Shown piece after piece: positions 11,443 through 49,538 of a stretch of DNA of 64,000 nucleotides. Position 1 is the first letter of the stretch. Each line of letters opens with the position of its first letter. The notes beneath the pieces were generated by a model. The model was not told where the DNA came from and did no database searches. It saw only the letters and a list, made by a program, of their open reading frames with translations. The stretch is from an uncultured Candidatus Saccharibacteria bacterium. GTDB taxonomy: Bacteria > Patescibacteriota > JABMPQ01 > JAQVVF01. Both the position numbers and the translations under genes were made by a program. The stretch is from contig CAZNOH010000002.1 of assembly GCA_964574655.1 (NCBI GenBank), forward strand, positions 29,620-93,619, given 5' to 3'.

Positions 11443-11657
11443 TTCTTCCTCCTCTTGTCTTGGGTTTTAAGGTTCATTGATTTAGAACTCTTAATTATAT
11501 TAATAAATAAGATATTGTCAAGCACATTCCATAATATATTAATTATATTTAGGCTATAATAAAGCAAAATATATAATTTATAACATAATTGTCGGAATAA
11601 TTTGACACAAAAATAATAATAAATTATACTTAAATTGACATAATTAATCTAAATAAT

Positions 11658-12443
11658 ATGGAATCATCTATTTTACAAAAACTGCTTAATTTAGGCTTAC
11701 AGCCAAATGAAGCCAAAATCTATCTTGCTTTGCTTGAATTAGGAAAAGGCACAGTCACTCAAATCAGCTATAAAGCAGAATTAAATAGAACAACTGGTTA
11801 CGATGTTTTAGAACGCTTAGCAATAAATGGCCTAGTCAATCGCACAATTTCTGGCAAAGAAAAGAGAGAATACGCAGTTGAATCTCCATCGCATCTTCGT
11901 CAATATTTAGAAAACAAAAAACAGGCCTACGAACGCCGTTTAGCCGAGCTAAAATACGCTTTGCCTGATTTAGAATCTCTATATAAAACCGAAATAAAAC
12001 CAGTCATCAAATTTGCTGAAAGCAAAGAAGCAATGGAAAATCTTTATTATCATGTTTTAGATTCAAAAAGTGAAGTCTATTCAATCTTAAATTTACAGCA
12101 ATATGCCGAATTTTTTGATGAAATGGGCACTTATCAATCCAAGGAGCGCGACAAAAAAAAGATTAAAGAAAAAGTTTTAGCACTTGATAATAACACTGCC
12201 AGATGGTGGTATAATAAAACTTACAAGAATAAAAAAAATAAAAATTTTACCGAATATAAATGGTTAAAACCAAACAAAAAATCATCAACTGCCGGCGAAA
12301 TTAATATTTTTGATGATAAAGTGATTGGCGTTTTATTAAAACCAACCGAAAATATTGCTTTTGAAATTCAAAGTCAGACTTTTGCTGATTTTTTGAAAAT
12401 TATCTTTGAAATGGCCTGGAAACAAGGAAGTAAATCAAAATAA
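11658..12443 (+). CDS. TrmB-family transcriptional regulator
   Basis: N-terminal LGLQPNEAKIYLALLELGKGTVTQIS winged HTH typical of the TrmB family. Confidence 0.65.
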   Translation: MESSILQKLLNLGLQPNEAKIYLALLELGKGTVTQISYKAELNRTTGYDVLERLAINGLVNRTISGKEKREYAVESPSHLRQYLENKKQAYERRLAELKYALPDLESLYKTEIKPVIKFAESKEAMENLYYHVLDSKSEVYSILNLQQYAEFFDEMGTYQSKERDKKKIKEKVLALDNNTARWWYNKTYKNKKNKNFTEYKWLKPNKKSSTAGEINIFDDKVIGVLLKPTENIAFEIQSQTFADFLKIIFEMAWKQGSKSK

Positions 12444-18276: not shown

Positions 18277-18593
18277 TGAATTATTTTGCCCTATTTCAAG
18301 CCTTTTTATGAGGCTTTTTTTAATGTTGAAAACAGCCAAATACTCAAAATCATAATGCCTTATCTAAGCCAAAAAGCATTGATATTTAGCAAATACTATT
18401 GACAAAATAATAAAGGTATGCTAAGATGACAAGCTATAGATTAAGCAATAAAAATAAAACCTTAGTACCTTCTAATTAGTTTTAGCCTCAAATTTGAGAG
18501 AAAGGCAGATCAGATATTAAATATTAGTTATACAGATCTTACGACTTTTTCTCAATTTTGAGGCAACGGCCAATCACGGCCTGGAGGCAGACA

Positions 18594-18653
18594 ATGCGTT
18601 ACGGAATCATCGGGATCCTGTTCGTTTGTGGCTCTTCCAGAATCAACAATTAA
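18594..18653 (+). CDS. candidate 19-aa hydrophobic peptide MRYGIIGILFVCGSSRINN
   Basis: GGAGG lies 6 nt upstream of the ATG, in a 600-bp non-coding region that has a second TTGACA-N17-TAAGAT promoter at 18399-18427 and a long stem at 18485-18563. Confidence 0.25.
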   Translation: MRYGIIGILFVCGSSRINN

Positions 18654-18908
18654 ATTGCTGATTGTGGAAGGAAATAAATAATCAACTTTAATGTTACAAG
18701 ATATTATTAAAGTAAAGATTCTAGATCTTTACTCAATGATCATGACTTCTCCATTCGGTTTATACCTAATAATGAAGAAGTAACAAAAATCTCCAAGCAG
18801 GGGATTTTTTGTTTGGAAAAAATCTGTTAAAATAAAACTAAGTTATAAAGTCCATAAAGTTATAAAGTTTTTAAAGTACTTTACAAACTTTATAACTTTA
18901 CAAACTTT

Positions 18909-25788: not shown

Positions 25789-25952
25789 TAACCTGTGCAT
25801 AACTATGGTATAACTTGTGTTTTGGTGTTCGCTAGTTATTGGTATTCTTTTTAATAAATGCTATAATTATGTCGAAAGTGTCGGACACTTTAGACAGATG
25901 CTTGAATAAGGCAAAAAAGCGTGTTATAGCAAAAATGTTCCACGTGGAACAA

Positions 25953-26045
25953 TCGGAGCGTCGGAGAATCAGAACGTCAGATCGTCGGAGCGTAGGACGT
26001 TCCGACGTTCCGACGTTCTGAAGCTCCGAAGATCTGACGCTCCAA
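25953..26045. repeat. tandem octamer array of the GACGTTCC family, second copy in the same orientation
   Basis: tcagaacgtcagatcgtcggagcgtaggacgttccgacgttccgacgttctg. Confidence 0.6.
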
Positions 26046-26056
26046 ATTCAAAAATT

Positions 26057-26806
26057 ATGGAAATCAAGGAATCATTGCAACAATTTGGATTAAAGCTATC
26101 CGAGTCCAACCTGTACCTGGCTGGCTTAAAATTGGGACCTGTCACAGTTAATGCCTTGGCAAAAGAGGCGAATGTGAAACGCACTACTGCCTATGCCAGT
26201 CTTGAAAAACTCAAAAAAATAAAACTCGCAAAAGAATATAAAAAGGGGAGATCTACAATCTTTGAAATGTGTTCTCCAGAAAGTCTACGTGATACACTTA
26301 AAATTCAAAGAGAAAAACTTATCGAACAAGAAGTGCTTCTCACCGATCTAATACCAAATATCAACGACTTCCTCAAATCAGAAACAAAGGTTGAAAATAT
26401 TAAAAAGTATGATAAGATTGAAGAAATTAAACAGATTTTATTTGATTTATTCTTGTCTAAAGATAAATTGCTAATCATGGGCTCAGACAAGTATCTTACA
26501 GAATATTTAGACAAACTAAAATTTCTAGACAAATTCTTAAGCAAAAGAATAGAAAAGAACAACAATATCTATATAGTTACAGATGCAAAAGACATTATGA
26601 CAGGCAAGTATCCTGATAATCAATCATCTCCTCATTACAAGTTCACTCCTAATCAAATAGACTTTAAATCACTGATCTTAATCTCAGGCAATCGCTTCTT
26701 ACAGATTCATTTCAATGCAAAGGTTACCGGTTTATATATAGAAGACAAGCATTTCATTTCTGCAATGAGATATTTCTTCCAGTTCTTGTGGAATAGTCTT
26801 AAATAA
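26057..26806 (+). CDS. TrmB-like transcriptional regulator (paralog of 11658..12443)
   Basis: N-terminal HTH LSESNLYLAGLKLGPVTVNALAKEANVKRTTAY. It is flanked by the palindrome ATGTTCCACGTGGAACA at 25936-25951 and 26884-26901. Confidence 0.55.
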   Translation: MEIKESLQQFGLKLSESNLYLAGLKLGPVTVNALAKEANVKRTTAYASLEKLKKIKLAKEYKKGRSTIFEMCSPESLRDTLKIQREKLIEQEVLLTDLIPNINDFLKSETKVENIKKYDKIEEIKQILFDLFLSKDKLLIMGSDKYLTEYLDKLKFLDKFLSKRIEKNNNIYIVTDAKDIMTGKYPDNQSSPHYKFTPNQIDFKSLILISGNRFLQIHFNAKVTGLYIEDKHFISAMRYFFQFLWNSLK

Positions 26807-29965: not shown

Positions 29966-30335
29966 TAAAAATCGCGAATTTACACAAATTCAGCACAAAT
30001 TTCACAAATAAAAAATGACGTTTTAACACGTCATTTTTTTATGTTTGCTAGAATTGGCTAAGGTTGGAGTGAGATTTAATGAAAAATCTTTTTAAAGATC
30101 ATTCATATAAACCTTAGCCAGTTTTAGGAAACAGTTCAGTATGTATATCTTGTCAATAGTATTAACATAATATAGCAGTATTTTGCCTTGTTTAAGGCAA
30201 ACAACGTTTAGATAATTTTGTAATATTTAAAAATAGAATACTAATCAACAATATGCTTGATTTATTTATAAAATGTATTAGAATAAGGATAACAAGTAGC
30301 TTGGAGCAATAGATCGCAAGCTCGTATCAAATTTT

Positions 30336-39570: not shown

Positions 39571-40103
39571 GATGATGCCAATCTACAAATCTTATGCCAA
39601 TTTACAAATTGCTAATATGTTAATGTCATGAATAATTTTACGAATTTGGTTTATCCAGAACTTTCGTATAAGATAACGGGTGTTTTATTTGATACTCATA
39701 ATAGTTTAGGAAGATTTTGTAACGAACAACAATATTCAGATTTTCTTGAGGACAATCTGAAGAAAATGAAAATAAAATATGAACGTGAAAAAATATTACC
39801 AAAATCTTTTGAAGAAGAACAAAAGGGACGAAACAGAATTGATTTTTTGATTGAAGACAAAATAATTTTAGAAATCAAAGCAAAAAGAATCGTTTTGAGA
39901 GAAGATTATTATCAAGTTAAAAGATATTTAATTGCCTTTAATAAAAAATTAGGCCTACTCGTAAATTTCAGAGACAAATATATTAGGCCAAAGCGTATTT
40001 TAAACTCCTCAGTAAAAGAGTATGAAAGTGTTAACAATCAGCAAATCGGCATAGCAAATTAGCAATTTGTAAATTGGCATAAAATTAGCGTATTGGCATC
40101 ATT
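39571..40103. mobile_element. cassette flanked by inverted repeats, carrying a GxxExxY gene and inserted between pilM and pilN
   Basis: The left arm at 39571-39619 (gatgatgccaatctacaaatcttatgccaatttacaaattgctaat) is the reverse complement of the right arm at 40050-40103 (attagcaatttgtaaattggcataaaattagcgtattggcatcatt). The left arm starts right after the pilM stop codon. Confidence 0.6.
39628..40062 (+). CDS. GxxExxY family protein (TIGR04256; IVS-associated)
   Basis: YPELSYKITGVLFDTHNSLG N-terminus and the downstream IDFLIEDKIILEIKA...LGLLVNF segment match the family pattern. Confidence 0.8.
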   Translation: MNNFTNLVYPELSYKITGVLFDTHNSLGRFCNEQQYSDFLEDNLKKMKIKYEREKILPKSFEEEQKGRNRIDFLIEDKIILEIKAKRIVLREDYYQVKRYLIAFNKKLGLLVNFRDKYIRPKRILNSSVKEYESVNNQQIGIAN

Positions 40104-41355: not shown

Positions 41356-41626
41356 CCCCAAAACAAGCCAAAAAGTAACGAATTACTTCCAGAAGAATAA
41401 CAACAAAGCAATTATTCTTGGTGTTTTTGTTGTCTCATTTTGCTTCGTTATATTTGGATCTTGGGTTTATCTGGTAACCTTTCTAATGCCTAAAGAGCCA
41501 GTCCAAAGCGAGATAATGCAAAAACGCCTTAAAATCGATAGCAAGAAATACGAAGGCATTATGCAAAGCCTTGCGAATGACCAAGAATCAAAAGCCCTCT
41601 CTCCAAGCACCAATCCTTTTAAATAA
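41342..41626 (+). CDS. small single-TM protein (PilP-position gene?)
   Basis: Overlaps pilO by 14 nt; one TM segment. Confidence 0.4.
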   Translation: MSQNSPKTSQKVTNYFQKNNNKAIILGVFVVSFCFVIFGSWVYLVTFLMPKEPVQSEIMQKRLKIDSKKYEGIMQSLANDQESKALSPSTNPFK

Positions 41627-41789
41627 GCATTATTGTCTTATACAGTATGAAAACAGGCACTTTTTGATTATGGCTATTTCAAGCCAAAATGACCTAAAAA
41701 TGATAATTGCTAGTGTATAATTATGACTATTTTAAAACGTTGTGCGTATTCTGCCTTATAAGAGCCAAAAGAAGAATTCAAAAAAAGGC

Positions 41790-41856
41790 TTGACATGGTT
41801 TTTGGGCAGTATACAATACAAGTACAGCCGAACGTATATGATACCTTCGGTTTTTT
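41790..41856 (+). promoter_or_regulatory. promoter TTGACA-N16-TACAAT followed about 10 nt later by an intrinsic terminator (leader or small RNA)
   Basis: ttgacatggtttttgggcagtatacaat...ccgaacgtatatgataccttcggtttttt. It lies about 300 nt upstream of the LysM-CHAP gene. Confidence 0.5.
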
Positions 41857-42152
41857 AATCCCTAAAATTAACTTATCTAATCTAGCCTTTTTTAAAGGCT
41901 AGATGAACCTAAATTGACTGGATAGCGAAAGACGATCTGTTTACACTTGAACTGGTTACCAATCAATTTGCAAGGAATACATATAAGCCTATTACTAGGA
42001 CAAGAAAAATCTTTGTTCATCTAATACCCAATATCAAAATTGGGCTGAGCAAGATTTATAACAAGTTTACAAAAACAAAAGAAAAAATCCAAAAACATTT
42101 AAAAATATTAGAACCTTTAAAAAATATTGCTAAAAAATATAGCAAATTCTAT

Positions 42153-43268
42153 TTGCACGCTGCTGTCATTATTATTGCTATTACTGTTGCAACATTCAAT
42201 GTATTAGCAAAAGAAGAAACAGTAACAGTCAAAGACAGTAGCATTTTAGCTAACTTAGTATTCCCAGAACAACAAAAATACGAAATTGTTAAGAATGCTA
42301 ACAAAAAGCCAGCTAAGACTAATTACTTATCTATTATATCAATCGCTTCTGCTTCACCTACTGGTGGTGCAATGAATACAAGCAAAAATGCTGTTGGTGC
42401 AACTTCAATTGCAACATTAGCTAAAGCTACAAAAAGCTTGCCTATGTTCAATAGCGATACATTAGTTAAAAATAGTTCAGTTAAAACTATCAAAACTAAG
42501 ACTGAAACAGAAAAAAGAAATGAACCTTTCAAGTATTTCGTAAAAGATGGTGATACAATTACTAACATCGCTTACAATTTCGCTGTTGATCCAGCTACTA
42601 TATTAGTAGAAAACGATTTATATGCTGATGACATCATCAAGCCTGGTATGGAATTAACTATCCTTCCAGTTCCTGGAACTTCTAAAAAAGTAGAAGCTGG
42701 CGATACTTTGGATCAAATTGCTGCTGACTCTGAAGCTGATCTTGAAAAAATTATAAAATTCAACAAATTAGCTAAAGCAGACAGTATCAAAGAAGGTCAA
42801 ATCTTAATTATTCCTGATGGAAAACGTTCTATTCAGGAAAGACCTATTCCAACTCCAGAAGAACAAGAAACATTAATTGCTACTTACAACGAAACAAACG
42901 ATACACAATACGAAACACCAAGCGTATATCAATCTCCAGTTGTTCATATTCAAGGTAGAGTTGCAAACAACTTTCCTTGGGGACAATGTACTTGGTATGT
43001 TGCTGAAAAACGCGGAGACGTTACATGGAATGGTAATGCCCGTGAATGGTTATGGAATGCCCAAGCTCAAGGTAGAGCAACAGGTAGAATTCCAGCCGTA
43101 GGCGCAATCATGGTTACAAACGAATCATGGTATGGCCACGTTACCTATGTAGAAGCTGTTAACGGTGACTCTGTCACTATCAGCGAAATGAACTTCGCAG
43201 GATTTGGTATTGAATCTACAAGAACAGTTTCAAATAGCAATGGTGTTATTCTAGGCTACATTTATTAA
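42153..43268 (+). CDS. LysM-LysM-CHAP peptidoglycan hydrolase
   Basis: Two LysM modules (DGDTITNIAYNF and AGDTLDQIAADS) and a C-terminal CHAP domain with Cys in GQCTWYVAEK and His in GHVTYVE. Confidence 0.8.
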   Translation: MHAAVIIIAITVATFNVLAKEETVTVKDSSILANLVFPEQQKYEIVKNANKKPAKTNYLSIISIASASPTGGAMNTSKNAVGATSIATLAKATKSLPMFNSDTLVKNSSVKTIKTKTETEKRNEPFKYFVKDGDTITNIAYNFAVDPATILVENDLYADDIIKPGMELTILPVPGTSKKVEAGDTLDQIAADSEADLEKIIKFNKLAKADSIKEGQILIIPDGKRSIQERPIPTPEEQETLIATYNETNDTQYETPSVYQSPVVHIQGRVANNFPWGQCTWYVAEKRGDVTWNGNAREWLWNAQAQGRATGRIPAVGAIMVTNESWYGHVTYVEAVNGDSVTISEMNFAGFGIESTRTVSNSNGVILGYIY

Positions 43269-43397
43269 AAAAGATATCCAGATAAAACCCCGGATTTTCC
43301 GGGGTTTTTGTTTTATTTAAAATGTGTTATATTATAATAAATTAAAGACGCGATTAATCGCGTCTTTACAAAAAATACTAAAAAATAAAATCAAAAC

Positions 43398-45167
43398 ATG
43401 TTCAAAAAAGCATCAATTATGGCAAGTGTTTTGTTATTAAGCTTTGTGCTAATAACAAATAATTCCTTAGCTGCTTTGAGTTGGGAAACTCAAGTAAGTG
43501 GAACAACGCATGAACTAAAAAGTATCTCAATTGCAACCAATAGCATCGGACTGGCTGGGGGATACAATTCATTAACTGGCGAAAGTGTATTAATAAGAAC
43601 AACAGATGCTGGTACTACATGGGAAAATGCTGGAACTACAATTTCATTTGGGGCAGGAATCTATGAAACAATGGACGTCAGTACCTATTTTAGTTCAAGC
43701 GAAAACAAAGTTTATGTAGCCGCAATATTTTCCCACAGCTCAGGAGGATATGGTCATGTTTTTAAAACAAATGACTTAGCTAATCTAAGTGGTGCATGGA
43801 CAAATACAAATATGGGGTTTGGAACTTACCAAACAAGCTCTGTCAAACAAATTGATCAAAATAATATCTATACCACTGGAAGCGATTCCGGATCTAGCGT
43901 TATAACAAAAAATGGGGCATTGCTTACAAATACTGATGCTTTGACCATCAAGCTAGTTGATATTGATTGTACTGACGAGAATCATTGCTGGGCAATTGGT
44001 TCAGGCGCTGTTGCTATTACTAGCAATGGCTCGACTTTCGATAGCGGGTATATCAGTGGTTTACCGATAGTTATTTCTGGTATTGATATGGTTAATAGCT
44101 CTCTTGGCTATATTGTCGGAAATAGCGGGACTATTTACAAGTGTTCAAGCAATAATTGTGCAAGCGAATCAGATTGGTCGCAAATGAGCAGTGGCTTGAC
44201 AGATAATCTACAAGGCATTAGTTGTATTAGCGCTGATACCTGCTGGACAGTCGGCAACTCTGGAGTTATCTATAAAACTACTAACGGTGGCACAAGTTGG
44301 TCATCCGAAACAAGCGGTACTATTTTAGCTCAATTAGATTCAACTGCACCAACAACAACAGCCTCACCAGCAGGAGGAGAATACGCTTCAGCTCAAACAG
44401 TTACTCTGACTGCAACAGATGAAGATTCAGGAGTTGACGCAACATATTATACAATCGATGGCTCAACACCAACCACTTCTTCAACAGTTTATTCATCACC
44501 AATCGCAATCTCAGCTACAACAACCCTCAAGTTTTTCTCAGTCGATAATGCTGGCAACAGCGAAAGTGTAAAAACAGAAAGCTATGTAATAAGCACAACG
44601 CCGACACCAACGCCATTCAACAAAAAAATCAATCTTGAAAACGCAGTTCTAGATACAACTTACCACAGCACAGAATCAAATACTGACCTTCTATTCTACA
44701 GGCTTCCAAAACAAGGAGTAATTACAGATCTTTATGTTAAGATCACTCGTAACAAAAAGAAATATAACTCAAATTTTAAGAAGAAATTGAGCTATCCAGG
44801 CTTTGTCACTCTCACATCAAATATTGGCAAAGTAGATAAAGACATTTACAGCAAAGTAAAAAAGCACATCAAATTCAAAGTTGCTATCCGTTATTCGCAG
44901 AACAAGATTAACAAGCTAAACCTAAAAGAAAAGAATCTAAGACTTTTCTACAAGAATCAAAATAATGTTTGGAAAGGACCATTCACTGTTTATCAGAACA
45001 AAGACAACAATGTCATCAAGTTCAAAATCAGAAACTATCTTCTCAAATCAAATACAACTAGCATGCTAGGAAACAGAACATTCTCTCCAGCATTCTACTT
45101 CCAAGACCTGACAAAGATTAAATTCATCGTTGCCGAAAAAAACGCCTTGATAGAACTCAATAACTAG
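43398..45167 (+). CDS. secreted BNR/sialidase-like repeat protein with a chitobiase/hexosaminidase-C-like Ig domain
   Basis: Signal peptide, repeated TTDAGTTW and TTNGGTSW motifs, and PAGGEY...TLTATDEDSGVDATYYTIDGSTPT. Confidence 0.7.
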   Translation: MFKKASIMASVLLLSFVLITNNSLAALSWETQVSGTTHELKSISIATNSIGLAGGYNSLTGESVLIRTTDAGTTWENAGTTISFGAGIYETMDVSTYFSSSENKVYVAAIFSHSSGGYGHVFKTNDLANLSGAWTNTNMGFGTYQTSSVKQIDQNNIYTTGSDSGSSVITKNGALLTNTDALTIKLVDIDCTDENHCWAIGSGAVAITSNGSTFDSGYISGLPIVISGIDMVNSSLGYIVGNSGTIYKCSSNNCASESDWSQMSSGLTDNLQGISCISADTCWTVGNSGVIYKTTNGGTSWSSETSGTILAQLDSTAPTTTASPAGGEYASAQTVTLTATDEDSGVDATYYTIDGSTPTTSSTVYSSPIAISATTTLKFFSVDNAGNSESVKTESYVISTTPTPTPFNKKINLENAVLDTTYHSTESNTDLLFYRLPKQGVITDLYVKITRNKKKYNSNFKKKLSYPGFVTLTSNIGKVDKDIYSKVKKHIKFKVAIRYSQNKINKLNLKEKNLRLFYKNQNNVWKGPFTVYQNKDNNVIKFKIRNYLLKSNTTSMLGNRTFSPAFYFQDLTKIKFIVAEKNALIELNN

Positions 45168-45493
45168 TAGCAGTATAAGCTATTCGCAATCTAAAGCCCC
45201 TGGAAGAGGGGCTTTTTTGTGTTCAAAATTAAGCCACAGACAGGGATATATGTCAAATAGGCACTTTTCTAGGCAATATAGCAAAAGGCGTGTTCTAGCT
45301 TCAAATATTGAGTTTTTAAGGTATTGGACAGGTGTTATTTTATAATAATCAATAATGTATGCCAGAATCCCTTGACTGACAAATATCAATGGCTAGAGTG
45401 TATTTATTGTTTTTTTTAATAGCTAAAATAACAATGCTTTGCTTCATTTAAGCCTAAGCATGTAATATTTAAGCCCTTTTTTCAGAAATAGCC

Positions 45494-45562
45494 TTGACAC
45501 TACTTGCTCAGATGTTAGTATGTAATGTTTTGAGGTAATCACGTATGGTACGTGATTTTTTG
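45494..45562 (+). promoter_or_regulatory. promoter TTGACA-N16-TAGTAT followed at once by an intrinsic terminator (second leader of the same type)
   Basis: ttgacactacttgctcagatgttagtat...atcacgtatggtacgtgattttttg. It lies about 125 nt upstream of the SLT gene. Confidence 0.5.
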
Positions 45563-45685
45563 TTCCAATAAAAACGTGCTTTGCGCTTAGAAATATTGGC
45601 TTATGAAAGCCATATTATTGAGCATAAAGCATACGAAATGCTGACTAAATAGCAATATTTGTTAGCATGAGTTGCTTTCAATTAA

Positions 45686-46327
45686 TTGAAGAAATATTTA
45701 ACTTTAGTCGCTGCTGTTGCCTTTTTGACAATGGCACTATTCCCAAATATATCTAATGCTAAAATTGACAATGATAAATTGTCAAAAGCTAATATGCTAG
45801 AGAATAGATTAAATAAAAAAATTGAATTTAATGCTGAATTAGGCATTAATAAAGAAAAAATTGAAAAGAATAAAGCTAAGAAATCAGCTAAATTAGCTGC
45901 TGCTAAAGAAAACGCTGAAAAAGTTCAGAAAGATCTTGAGCTAGCTAAGACTCCTGATACCACTGGCTTTGACAACATTTATAAAGCTGCTGGTGAAAAA
46001 TATGAAGTGCCATGGCAAATTTTGTCTGGTGTTCACTTGATAGAAACACGTAGATCTGGTGATACTTCTATTGCATCTTATGCTGGTGCGCAAGGACCAA
46101 TGCAGTTCATTCCATCAACTTGGGCTATGTATGGTGTTGATGGTGACGGTGATGGTAATGCTAATATTCATGATTCTGATGACGCCATTTATTCTGCTGC
46201 TAACTATTTGTCTGCCTCTGGTGCAAGCAATGGCGATATATATAACGCTTTATTTGCTTATAACCACGCTGACTGGTATGTAAACCAAGTTTTGGATAAT
46301 GCTAGAGCTGTTGGTTATAATGCCTAA
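45686..46327 (+). CDS. SLT-domain lytic transglycosylase (MltB-like), secreted
   Basis: Signal peptide and the GAQGPMQFIPSTW motif. Confidence 0.8.
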   Translation: MKKYLTLVAAVAFLTMALFPNISNAKIDNDKLSKANMLENRLNKKIEFNAELGINKEKIEKNKAKKSAKLAAAKENAEKVQKDLELAKTPDTTGFDNIYKAAGEKYEVPWQILSGVHLIETRRSGDTSIASYAGAQGPMQFIPSTWAMYGVDGDGDGNANIHDSDDAIYSAANYLSASGASNGDIYNALFAYNHADWYVNQVLDNARAVGYNA

Positions 46328-49400: not shown

Positions 49401-49538
49401 AAACAATAGATCTTTTTTCGCACTCATGTGCGATTTTTTTATAGCTTAAATCATTAAGTATAGACAAAAACAATTTATTATGTTATCTTAAAAAGTAATG
49501 TTCTTTCACAAGCGGTGAAAGCCGCAAGGAGGAGAGGA

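Follow-up and report, generated by a model that had tools for sequence, protein, structure and literature searches.

Termination of transcription close to the promoter, within the leader of a gene, has been described for several systems. In the Escherichia coli greA leader, two-thirds of the transcripts end as GraL RNAs of 40–60 nucleotides (nt), and one-third read through (PMC2836576). The PR′–tR′ unit of lambdoid phages consists of a promoter that is always active and a terminator immediately downstream, which is subject to Q antitermination, as in the Stx phages with their StxS RNA (PMC7547250). StxS and GraL are examples of leader-terminator by-products that can be functional. [quoted passage not shown] The present analysis concerns two leaders in a 64,000-nt stretch of DNA (the window; contig CAZNOH010000002.1, positions 29,620 to 93,619) from an uncultured Candidatus Saccharibacteria bacterium, an ultrasmall member of the Patescibacteria (Candidate Phyla Radiation, CPR). 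Leader A is located before a LysM-CHAP peptidoglycan hydrolase gene and leader B before an SLT-domain lytic transglycosylase gene. Judged by their sequences, these promoter-proximal leaders of two autolysin genes are most likely attenuators of an antiterminator-less kind. The guanine plus cytosine (G+C) content of the window is 34%, and its closest genome match is a metagenome-assembled genome (MAG) named 'Patescibacteria group bacterium', with ~82% nucleotide identity.

Promoter A (41790–41817, plus strand) comprises TTGACA (41790–41795), a 16-nt spacer and TACAAT (41812–41817), which gives 11 of 12 consensus matches; the A-tract TTCAAAAAAAGGC lies upstream of it. About nine nt past the −10 element begins the hairpin HP1, which together with a run of six T occupies 41826–41856 of the plus strand. 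The core of HP1, CCGAAC-GTAT-atg-ATAC-C-TTCGG, is located at 41828–41850 and can be extended to 41826–41852, and the T-run covers 41851–41856. The stem is formed by CCGAA/TTCGG plus an inner GTAT/ATAC, that is, a stable stem-loop with G-C pairs of the kind expected of a terminator, and it folds at −9.7 kcal/mol (RNAfold). In the predicted transcript HP1 would begin at about +2 to +5. The LysM-CHAP gene follows at 42045–43268 on the plus strand (Pfam LysM 1.1e-16, CHAP 1.2e-16; start codon uncertain).

Leader B has the same organization. Promoter B (45494–45521, plus strand) is composed of TTGACA (45494–45499), a 16-nt spacer and a TG-extended TAGTAT (45516–45521), with 10 of 12 matches and the TG present. 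Its terminator-like hairpin with a T-run (45537–45561, plus strand) starts fifteen nt past the −10 element; it consists of AATCACGTA-tgg-TACGTGATT at 45537–45557 and six T at 45556–45561. The 9-bp stem folds at −8.9 kcal/mol (RNAfold), and the whole element would span about +8 to +40 of the transcript. The SLT gene (45686–46327, plus strand) was identified by Pfam (SLT_2 1.6e-15, SLT 1.8e-9) and by homologues, and translation from its TTG start yields the signal peptide MKKYLTLVAAVAFLTMALFPNISNA. The preliminary description, in which both sites share TTGACA, a 16-nt spacer, a good −10 element, a hairpin about 10–20 nt further on and a T-run, the first before the LysM-CHAP gene and the second before the SLT gene, was thus confirmed at these positions, and by Pfam for the two genes.

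Relatives were gathered via similarity to the LysM-CHAP protein and to the SLT protein. They form a close clade (L001, L016, L017/L021, L018–L022; ~75–82% nucleotide identity) and a distant set (L023, L025, L027, L029, L030, L031, L050, L051, L052), whose SLT proteins are 44–69% identical to that of the window. In almost all relatives collected the CHAP and SLT genes are adjacent or nearly so. The module is present at both genes in ~12 related Patescibacteria genomes, with SLT protein identities of 44–86%. L009 is uninformative for leader B, its SLT gene being inverted and cut by the contig end.

Within the close clade, alignments A2 and A3 of the two intergenic regions show the −35 and −10 elements, the hairpin and the T-run as the best-conserved islands. 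The −35 element of promoter A is invariant in the close relatives (n = 5), and its −10 element is either TACAAT or TAGTAT; at promoter B the −35 element and its flank TTTCAGAAATAGCCTTGACAC are invariant (alignment A3). In leader A of L001 an inner pair of HP1 is preserved through a change from G-C to A-T, and the six T are retained. In leader B of the close clade the stem is constant and the loop is variable (TGG, TGA, TGTTG). The intergenic DNA of the distant relatives is unalignable, yet both of their genes are preceded by TTGAC[AGT], a spacer of 16–17 nt, TAnnnT and then a hairpin. Equivalents of promoter B were found in L023, L025, L027, L029, L031, L050, L051 and L052.

The stems themselves are replaced between lineages. 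At the HP1 position other stems occur in L023, L027, L029, L030, L031 and L050, and at least six different hairpin stems are used by the CHAP leaders across the relatives. In all 9 lineages the CHAP hairpin starts 7–11 nt after the −10 element, at about +1 to +5. It is followed by a T-run in the window clade and in L023, L029 and L050. The SLT leaders have at least five stems, CACGTA/TACGTG, CAGGGC/GCCCTG, CAGGAC/GTCCTG, AAGAAGGC/GCCTTCTT and AAGGGG/CCCCTT, which start 13–19 nt after the −10 element and would leave a single-stranded 5′ tail of 7–12 nt. In most SLT leaders a run of 4–8 T abuts the stem; L029 and L050 have an interrupted tail and L051 a weaker one. Altogether, a T/U-rich run accompanies the promoter-proximal hairpin in 10 of 11 distinct SLT leaders. 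Partial exceptions are L030, where a hairpin with five T lies ~160 nt downstream of the sole clear promoter, and L052, which has a weak hairpin candidate only, ~50 nt downstream of the promoter.

Some SLT stems contain G.U wobbles, as in ATCACG/CGTGGT of L023 and TACGTGGT of L025. Such pairs are valid only in the plus-strand RNA and point to a function of that strand at the RNA level. A minus-strand function was rejected for the same reason, and also because the hairpin is not followed by a T-run when read on the minus strand. In L025 only ~25 nt separate the T-run from the SLT ATG, too few to accommodate another promoter, and the hairpin is therefore part of the mRNA leader.

A hairpin loop common to both sites, cgtatRtgRtac, had also been proposed. 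It fits leader A literally, but leader B (CGTATGGTAC) only with a gap, and it is not conserved in relatives; moreover, the bases in question form the upper stem plus the loop. The idea that a loop sequence common to both leaders acts as a recognition signal had to be abandoned, since the corresponding sequence of L001 is CATAAATGATATC, and CAGGGC/GCCCTG and further stems occur in other SLT leaders.

A scan of the window for the module gave 4 loose matches, and only A and B were strong. In 100 dinucleotide shuffles of the window a mean of 0.43 matches was obtained, and 7 of the 100 gave two or more. The pattern is considered non-random because it is conserved in relatives and not because of these in-window statistics. 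The proposed search for more copies had a divided outcome: none further exists in the window, but the orthologous leaders of both genes in relatives carry the module. No other comparably strong module was found by scanning ~390 kb of related, partly redundant DNA; the few other matches combine weak promoter-like sites with apparent ordinary gene-end terminators. The 45 nt that follow 19 other promoter-like sites of the window have a mean folding energy of −4.2 kcal/mol, against −9.7 and −8.9 kcal/mol for leaders A and B and a mean of −11.2 kcal/mol for 17 homologous leaders. These comparisons support the view that the two elements are true counterparts, maintained by selection and specific to the two peptidoglycan hydrolase genes.

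The following course of events could be realized at both genes. Each hydrolase gene would be transcribed from its strong sigma-70-type promoter. An intrinsic-terminator hairpin and U-run would form within the first 35–42 nt of the transcript, and most RNA polymerases would release a short hairpin RNA. The mRNA of LysM-CHAP or SLT would be made only by polymerases that read through, and the frequency of read-through would set the level of the two autolysins. The sequence architecture, its conservation, the covariation of the structures and the restriction to these two genes are observations, from which promoter activity, start site, termination and read-through are inferred. On balance, with confidence somewhat above even, the leaders are interpreted as intrinsic-terminator attenuators without an antiterminator, whose read-through sets the two autolysin levels. 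A terminated leader that needs read-through, which had been one of the suggestions of the preliminary description, is the best reading, because its elements are conserved in relatives and lie inside mRNA leaders (L025). The short RNA of about 40 nt suggested beside it agrees with the predicted length of about 33–42 nt, but hardly as a stand-alone small RNA (sRNA), as the hairpin sequences turn over between lineages.

Only ~2–12 nt of RNA would precede the hairpin, and neither an antiterminator fold nor a sensor would fit there. An antiterminator fold upstream of the hairpin was also rejected on the basis of the computed folds, which contain no alternative pairing. With no space for an antiterminator, aptamer or leader peptide, the classical attenuator families (riboswitch, T-box, RAT/BglG, PyrR, TRAP and leader peptide) fail their defining test. 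A leader peptide was examined separately: no open reading frame (ORF) exists before the hairpin, and leader B has a 13-codon ORF at 45606 whose ATG is replaced by ATT in L017, so that it is not conserved. The turnover of stem sequences makes a sequence-specific hairpin-binding protein less likely. A sigma-dependent pause was considered as well; the −10-like TATGAT/TATGGT of the window loops, on which the proposed common loop pattern is based, is not kept in relatives, which have GATAAG, CATAGG and others. Read-through could be a fixed leak of the E. coli greA type, or it could be modulated via polymerase or termination kinetics, and these two options are favoured. Candidate modulators would be a processive antiterminator, Nus factors and the nucleoside triphosphate level, especially that of uridine triphosphate (UTP).

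Several observations weigh against attenuation. The in-window statistic is weak and no more than suggestive. The start sites and RNA 3′ ends in both leaders are predicted positions. With −7 to −11 kcal/mol, the leader hairpins are less stable than the majority of the window's gene-end terminators (−14 to −17 kcal/mol); they overlap the weaker ones at 49418 and 50088 in energy, and their T-tails are equal or better. Such modest energies fit leaky terminators, and termination may be inefficient. In L027, L030 and L031 the CHAP leader retains its 5′ hairpin but has no T-run, which means that, at least there, the hairpin has a role other than termination, possibly 5′-end protection or RNA folding. 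Finally, no candidate antiterminator or regulator was identified; among the annotated neighbours there is no antiterminator-like gene, this search not being exhaustive.

In a competing explanation, the hairpins would be 5′-end mRNA structures serving protection against 5′-dependent RNases or folding and nucleation, the U-run would belong to an AU-rich leader, and no attenuation would take place. The 5′-terminal stabiliser hairpins of the ompA and aprE type sit near the mRNA 5′ end and have no requirement for a U-run. The position of the CHAP hairpin close to the predicted 5′ end in every lineage, including the three that have no T-run, agrees with this explanation, as does the fact that most genes of the genome have AU-rich leaders without a Shine-Dalgarno (SD) sequence. 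The missing SD sequence cannot be regarded as special to the hydrolase genes, since only 14 of 51 window ORFs have an SD-like core. However, 4–8 T abut the stem in most SLT and CHAP leaders, although the flanks are unalignable between clades, and the predicted 7–12-nt single-stranded tail in front of the SLT hairpin would defeat protection. The explanation by 5′-end structure is therefore regarded as unlikely, while being the strongest of the competing ones.

The two units could also be independent genes for trans-acting sRNAs of ~35–40 nt, the hydrolase genes having their own downstream promoters. Genes for sRNAs are built in this way, from a strong promoter and a terminator, and by-product leader RNAs such as StxS and GraL can function. 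The variation of hairpin and loop sequences between lineages implies, however, that there is no conserved seed; no conserved second promoter appears downstream in alignments A2 and A3, and L025 lacks room for one before its SLT ATG. This possibility is thought to be quite improbable. Still less credit, to the point of being very improbable, is given to the inverted repeats as DNA operators, at which a repressor would act as a roadblock at +10 to +40 and RNA structure would be irrelevant: the perfect palindromes AATCACGTA/TACGTGATT do resemble sites for dimeric transcription factors, but stems are wholly replaced between lineages with pairing kept via plus-strand G.U wobbles, and the T-run that follows the stem in most leaders would be needless for an operator. 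The view that promoter-like and terminator-like strings just happen to lie together in AT-rich intergenic DNA, for which the shuffled windows with two or more loose matches and the barely enriched promoter-like sites (76 versus 60.8 in shuffles) could be quoted, is effectively refuted by the same architecture at both orthologous genes in ~12 diverged genomes.

Under leader termination with read-through, the CHAP mRNA could be subject to further controls downstream, namely a structured RNA motif of 66 nt, a start codon other than ATG and a helix that covers the start region. A second leader hairpin, HP2 (TCTAGCC..GGCTAGA, 41881–41903, plus strand), is kept in L001 via changes from C-G to T-A and from A-T to G-T, and non-homologous hairpins occupy its position in L027, L030, L031 and L050. 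The 66-nt motif follows at 41909–41974 on the plus strand. Its helix P1, of 11 bp, pairs 41911–41921 with 41959–41969 and closes a 37-nt internal region (RNAalifold) with the invariant GGAU..G..CUGU..CUUGA..GGU.ACC. Nine of the 11 pairs of P1 covary, and 90% of cells are paired; none of 500 shuffles reaches the observed covariation score, and slid controls are far lower. The covariance model R1 built for the motif has one match per genome, always before the CHAP gene (11 distinct relatives). R1 has no match in any SLT leader or before the distant LysM-CHAP genes of Chloroflexota or Magasanikbacteria.

A search of the window against Rfam 15, with the c-di-AMP/ydaO family included, returned only tRNAs at the gathering threshold, and at E<=10 no relevant family was found in 41600–42200, 45170–45720 or positions 200–470 of the GC-rich homologue L029. 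For the motif, a scan of IMG/VR yielded nothing but chance matches within coding sequence of phages. Being located upstream of the motif, the terminator cannot be its expression platform. The motif is a candidate for a new cis-regulatory RNA, undescribed as far as the Rfam families are concerned.

The region 41913–42044 was also considered as ordinary coding sequence, and this was rejected for the motif region: L016 has two 1-nt indels there, different genomes place the motif in different reading frames, and L016, L017, L025 and L031 contain stop codons in frame. A start-region hairpin, CCCAAT..ATTGGG, with the adjoining CTG occupies 42027–42047 on the plus strand; the hairpin (42027–42044) abuts the probable start codon CTG (42045–42047), and in L001 it reads CCCAGA..TCTGGG, with two compensatory pairs. 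The start-aligned codon is ATG in L029, L030 and L050, TTG in L023 and L025, and the CTG at 42045 in the window. According to reading-frame analysis, the N-terminal transmembrane (TM) helix of the LysM-CHAP product begins near 42153. Relatives have TTA or CTA in place of the annotated TTG at 42153, which is thus not conserved, and the close clade lacks any in-frame ATG, GTG or TTG upstream of the TM helix. The LysM-CHAP gene thus seems to use a non-canonical start, with CTG 42045 as the probable codon and ATA 42024 as the alternative.

The downstream part of leader B (45573–45685, plus strand) is conserved in the close clade (alignment A3). A long hairpin at ~45577–45633 and two smaller ones are predicted there, the last small one containing the TTG start. 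Little covariation is seen in this part (RNAalifold, 3 distinct sequences). It is missing from L025, which has a minimal leader, and is replaced by unrelated sequence of similar length in other relatives.

A palindrome-like motif, GCCTTATAAGAGCC, was found by position weight matrix and regular-expression scanning at 41753–41766 (plus strand), ~25 nt upstream of the −35 element of promoter A. A second copy, GGCTATTTCAAGCC, lies at 41672–41685, also upstream of promoter A, and the copy of leader B, GGCTTAAATGAAGC, at 45441–45454 on the minus strand. Palindromes of the GGCTTAAATAAGCC type occur 10–45 nt upstream of the −35 element in both leaders and in the hydrolase leaders of relatives. The same palindrome precedes two TrmB-family regulator genes (11658–12443 and 26057–26806), the region of a GH3 (NagZ-like) gene and other sites. 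As a hydrolase-specific operator it was rejected, because it occurs at other promoters of the window too; it may be a candidate operator of a global or TrmB-type regulator. Shared control of the lytic enzymes, which had been put forward as a possibility, keeps the parallel architecture and the shared upstream palindrome on its side, but this palindrome is non-specific and no hydrolase-specific motif was found. Any such shared control would rest on these two features.

Palindromes of the GGCTTAAATAAGCC(A)AAA type were noted in the window at 11552, 18357, 25899, 27927, 30185–30198, 41672, 41753, 45441–45454 and 51830. Just upstream of the second TrmB-family gene, at 25930–26050, lies a long, GC-rich imperfect inverted repeat, GGAGCGTCGGAG...CTCCGAAG..GACGCTCC, together with the palindrome GTTCCACGTGGAAC; this region is very unlike its surroundings of 34% G+C. 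Another unit, at 18399–18812, has a consensus promoter (TTGACA, 17 nt, TAAGAT) and a terminator ~400 nt further on, with no long ORF between them. It contains a 19-codon ORF at 18594–18653 (MRYGIIGILFVCGSSRINN) with a GGAGG Shine-Dalgarno sequence, and its RNA is GC-rich, structured-looking and without a match in Rfam.

Upstream of leader A are pilM/N/O-like genes. Between pilM and pilN, at 39628–40062, lies a PD-(D/E)XK nuclease-family gene that is probably a recent insertion, because the syntenic loci L001, L017 and L021 lack it. The surface protein encoded between the CHAP and SLT genes (43398–45167 in the window, 13702–17217 in L016, ~1200–7100 in L009; BNR and CHB_HEX_C/Fn3_assoc) is highly variable: it has 589 amino acids in the window and 1171 amino acids, with many repeated CHB_HEX_C units, in L016. 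The orientation of the SLT gene is flipped relative to the CHAP gene in L016 and L009. In L018 (107–2788), which belongs to the same MAG as L001, genes of a diversity-generating retroelement (bAvd and reverse transcriptase) directly precede the SLT leader; the window lacks these genes.

Gene regulation has hardly been explored in Patescibacteria, whose genomes contain few genes for regulators. Peptidoglycan hydrolases endanger the cell that makes them, and an action on the host envelope has been proposed for lytic transglycosylases (PMC11665869). A conserved leader-termination module together with a covarying RNA motif provides concrete, testable cis-elements for the restraint or timing of cell-wall cleavage. 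The same elements could supply natural parts for the genetic tools that the field lacks: a strong promoter, a tunable leader terminator and a candidate riboregulator. In a bolder version, which is considered unlikely and is offered as speculation, the modules would be the read-out of a Patescibacteria-specific antitermination or kinetic switch, for example one sensing the UTP pool, that co-activates both autolysins when host-derived nucleotides or cell-wall precursors are available to the epibiont, and the 66-nt motif would represent a new class of ligand- or protein-binding riboregulators.

The architecture is ordinary in principle; it deserves attention because it is deeply conserved, is duplicated on two genes linked in function and comes from a phylum that is poorly understood. 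With stabiliser hairpins of the ompA and aprE type the CHAP leader shares a hairpin predicted within a few nt of the 5′ end, whereas the SLT-leader hairpins are predicted 7–12 nt from it and a U-run is present. Like the lysM motifs and the ydaO riboswitch, the present system would exert leader-RNA control of hydrolase genes, and the CHAP leader has a covarying structured RNA. It differs in that the terminator lies upstream of the structured motif, the motif has no Rfam match, and the SLT leader has no motif.

The PR′–tR′ unit resembles the present leaders in its strong promoter closely followed by a terminator, in a lytic enzyme among the genes behind it and in the short RNA by-product (PMC7547250). 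In contrast, no Q-like gene, Q-binding element or conserved −10-like pause element was found here, the terminator is nearer to the start, and the genes are chromosomal hydrolases of a housekeeping type, with signal or TM sequences, and not phage lysis genes. The greA/GraL leader has strong promoter(s), an intrinsic terminator tens of nt from the start and no antiterminator fold (PMC2836576), as is proposed here. It belongs to another gene class and another phylum; in the present case two functionally related genes carry the element, it is deeply conserved, and termination is predicted.

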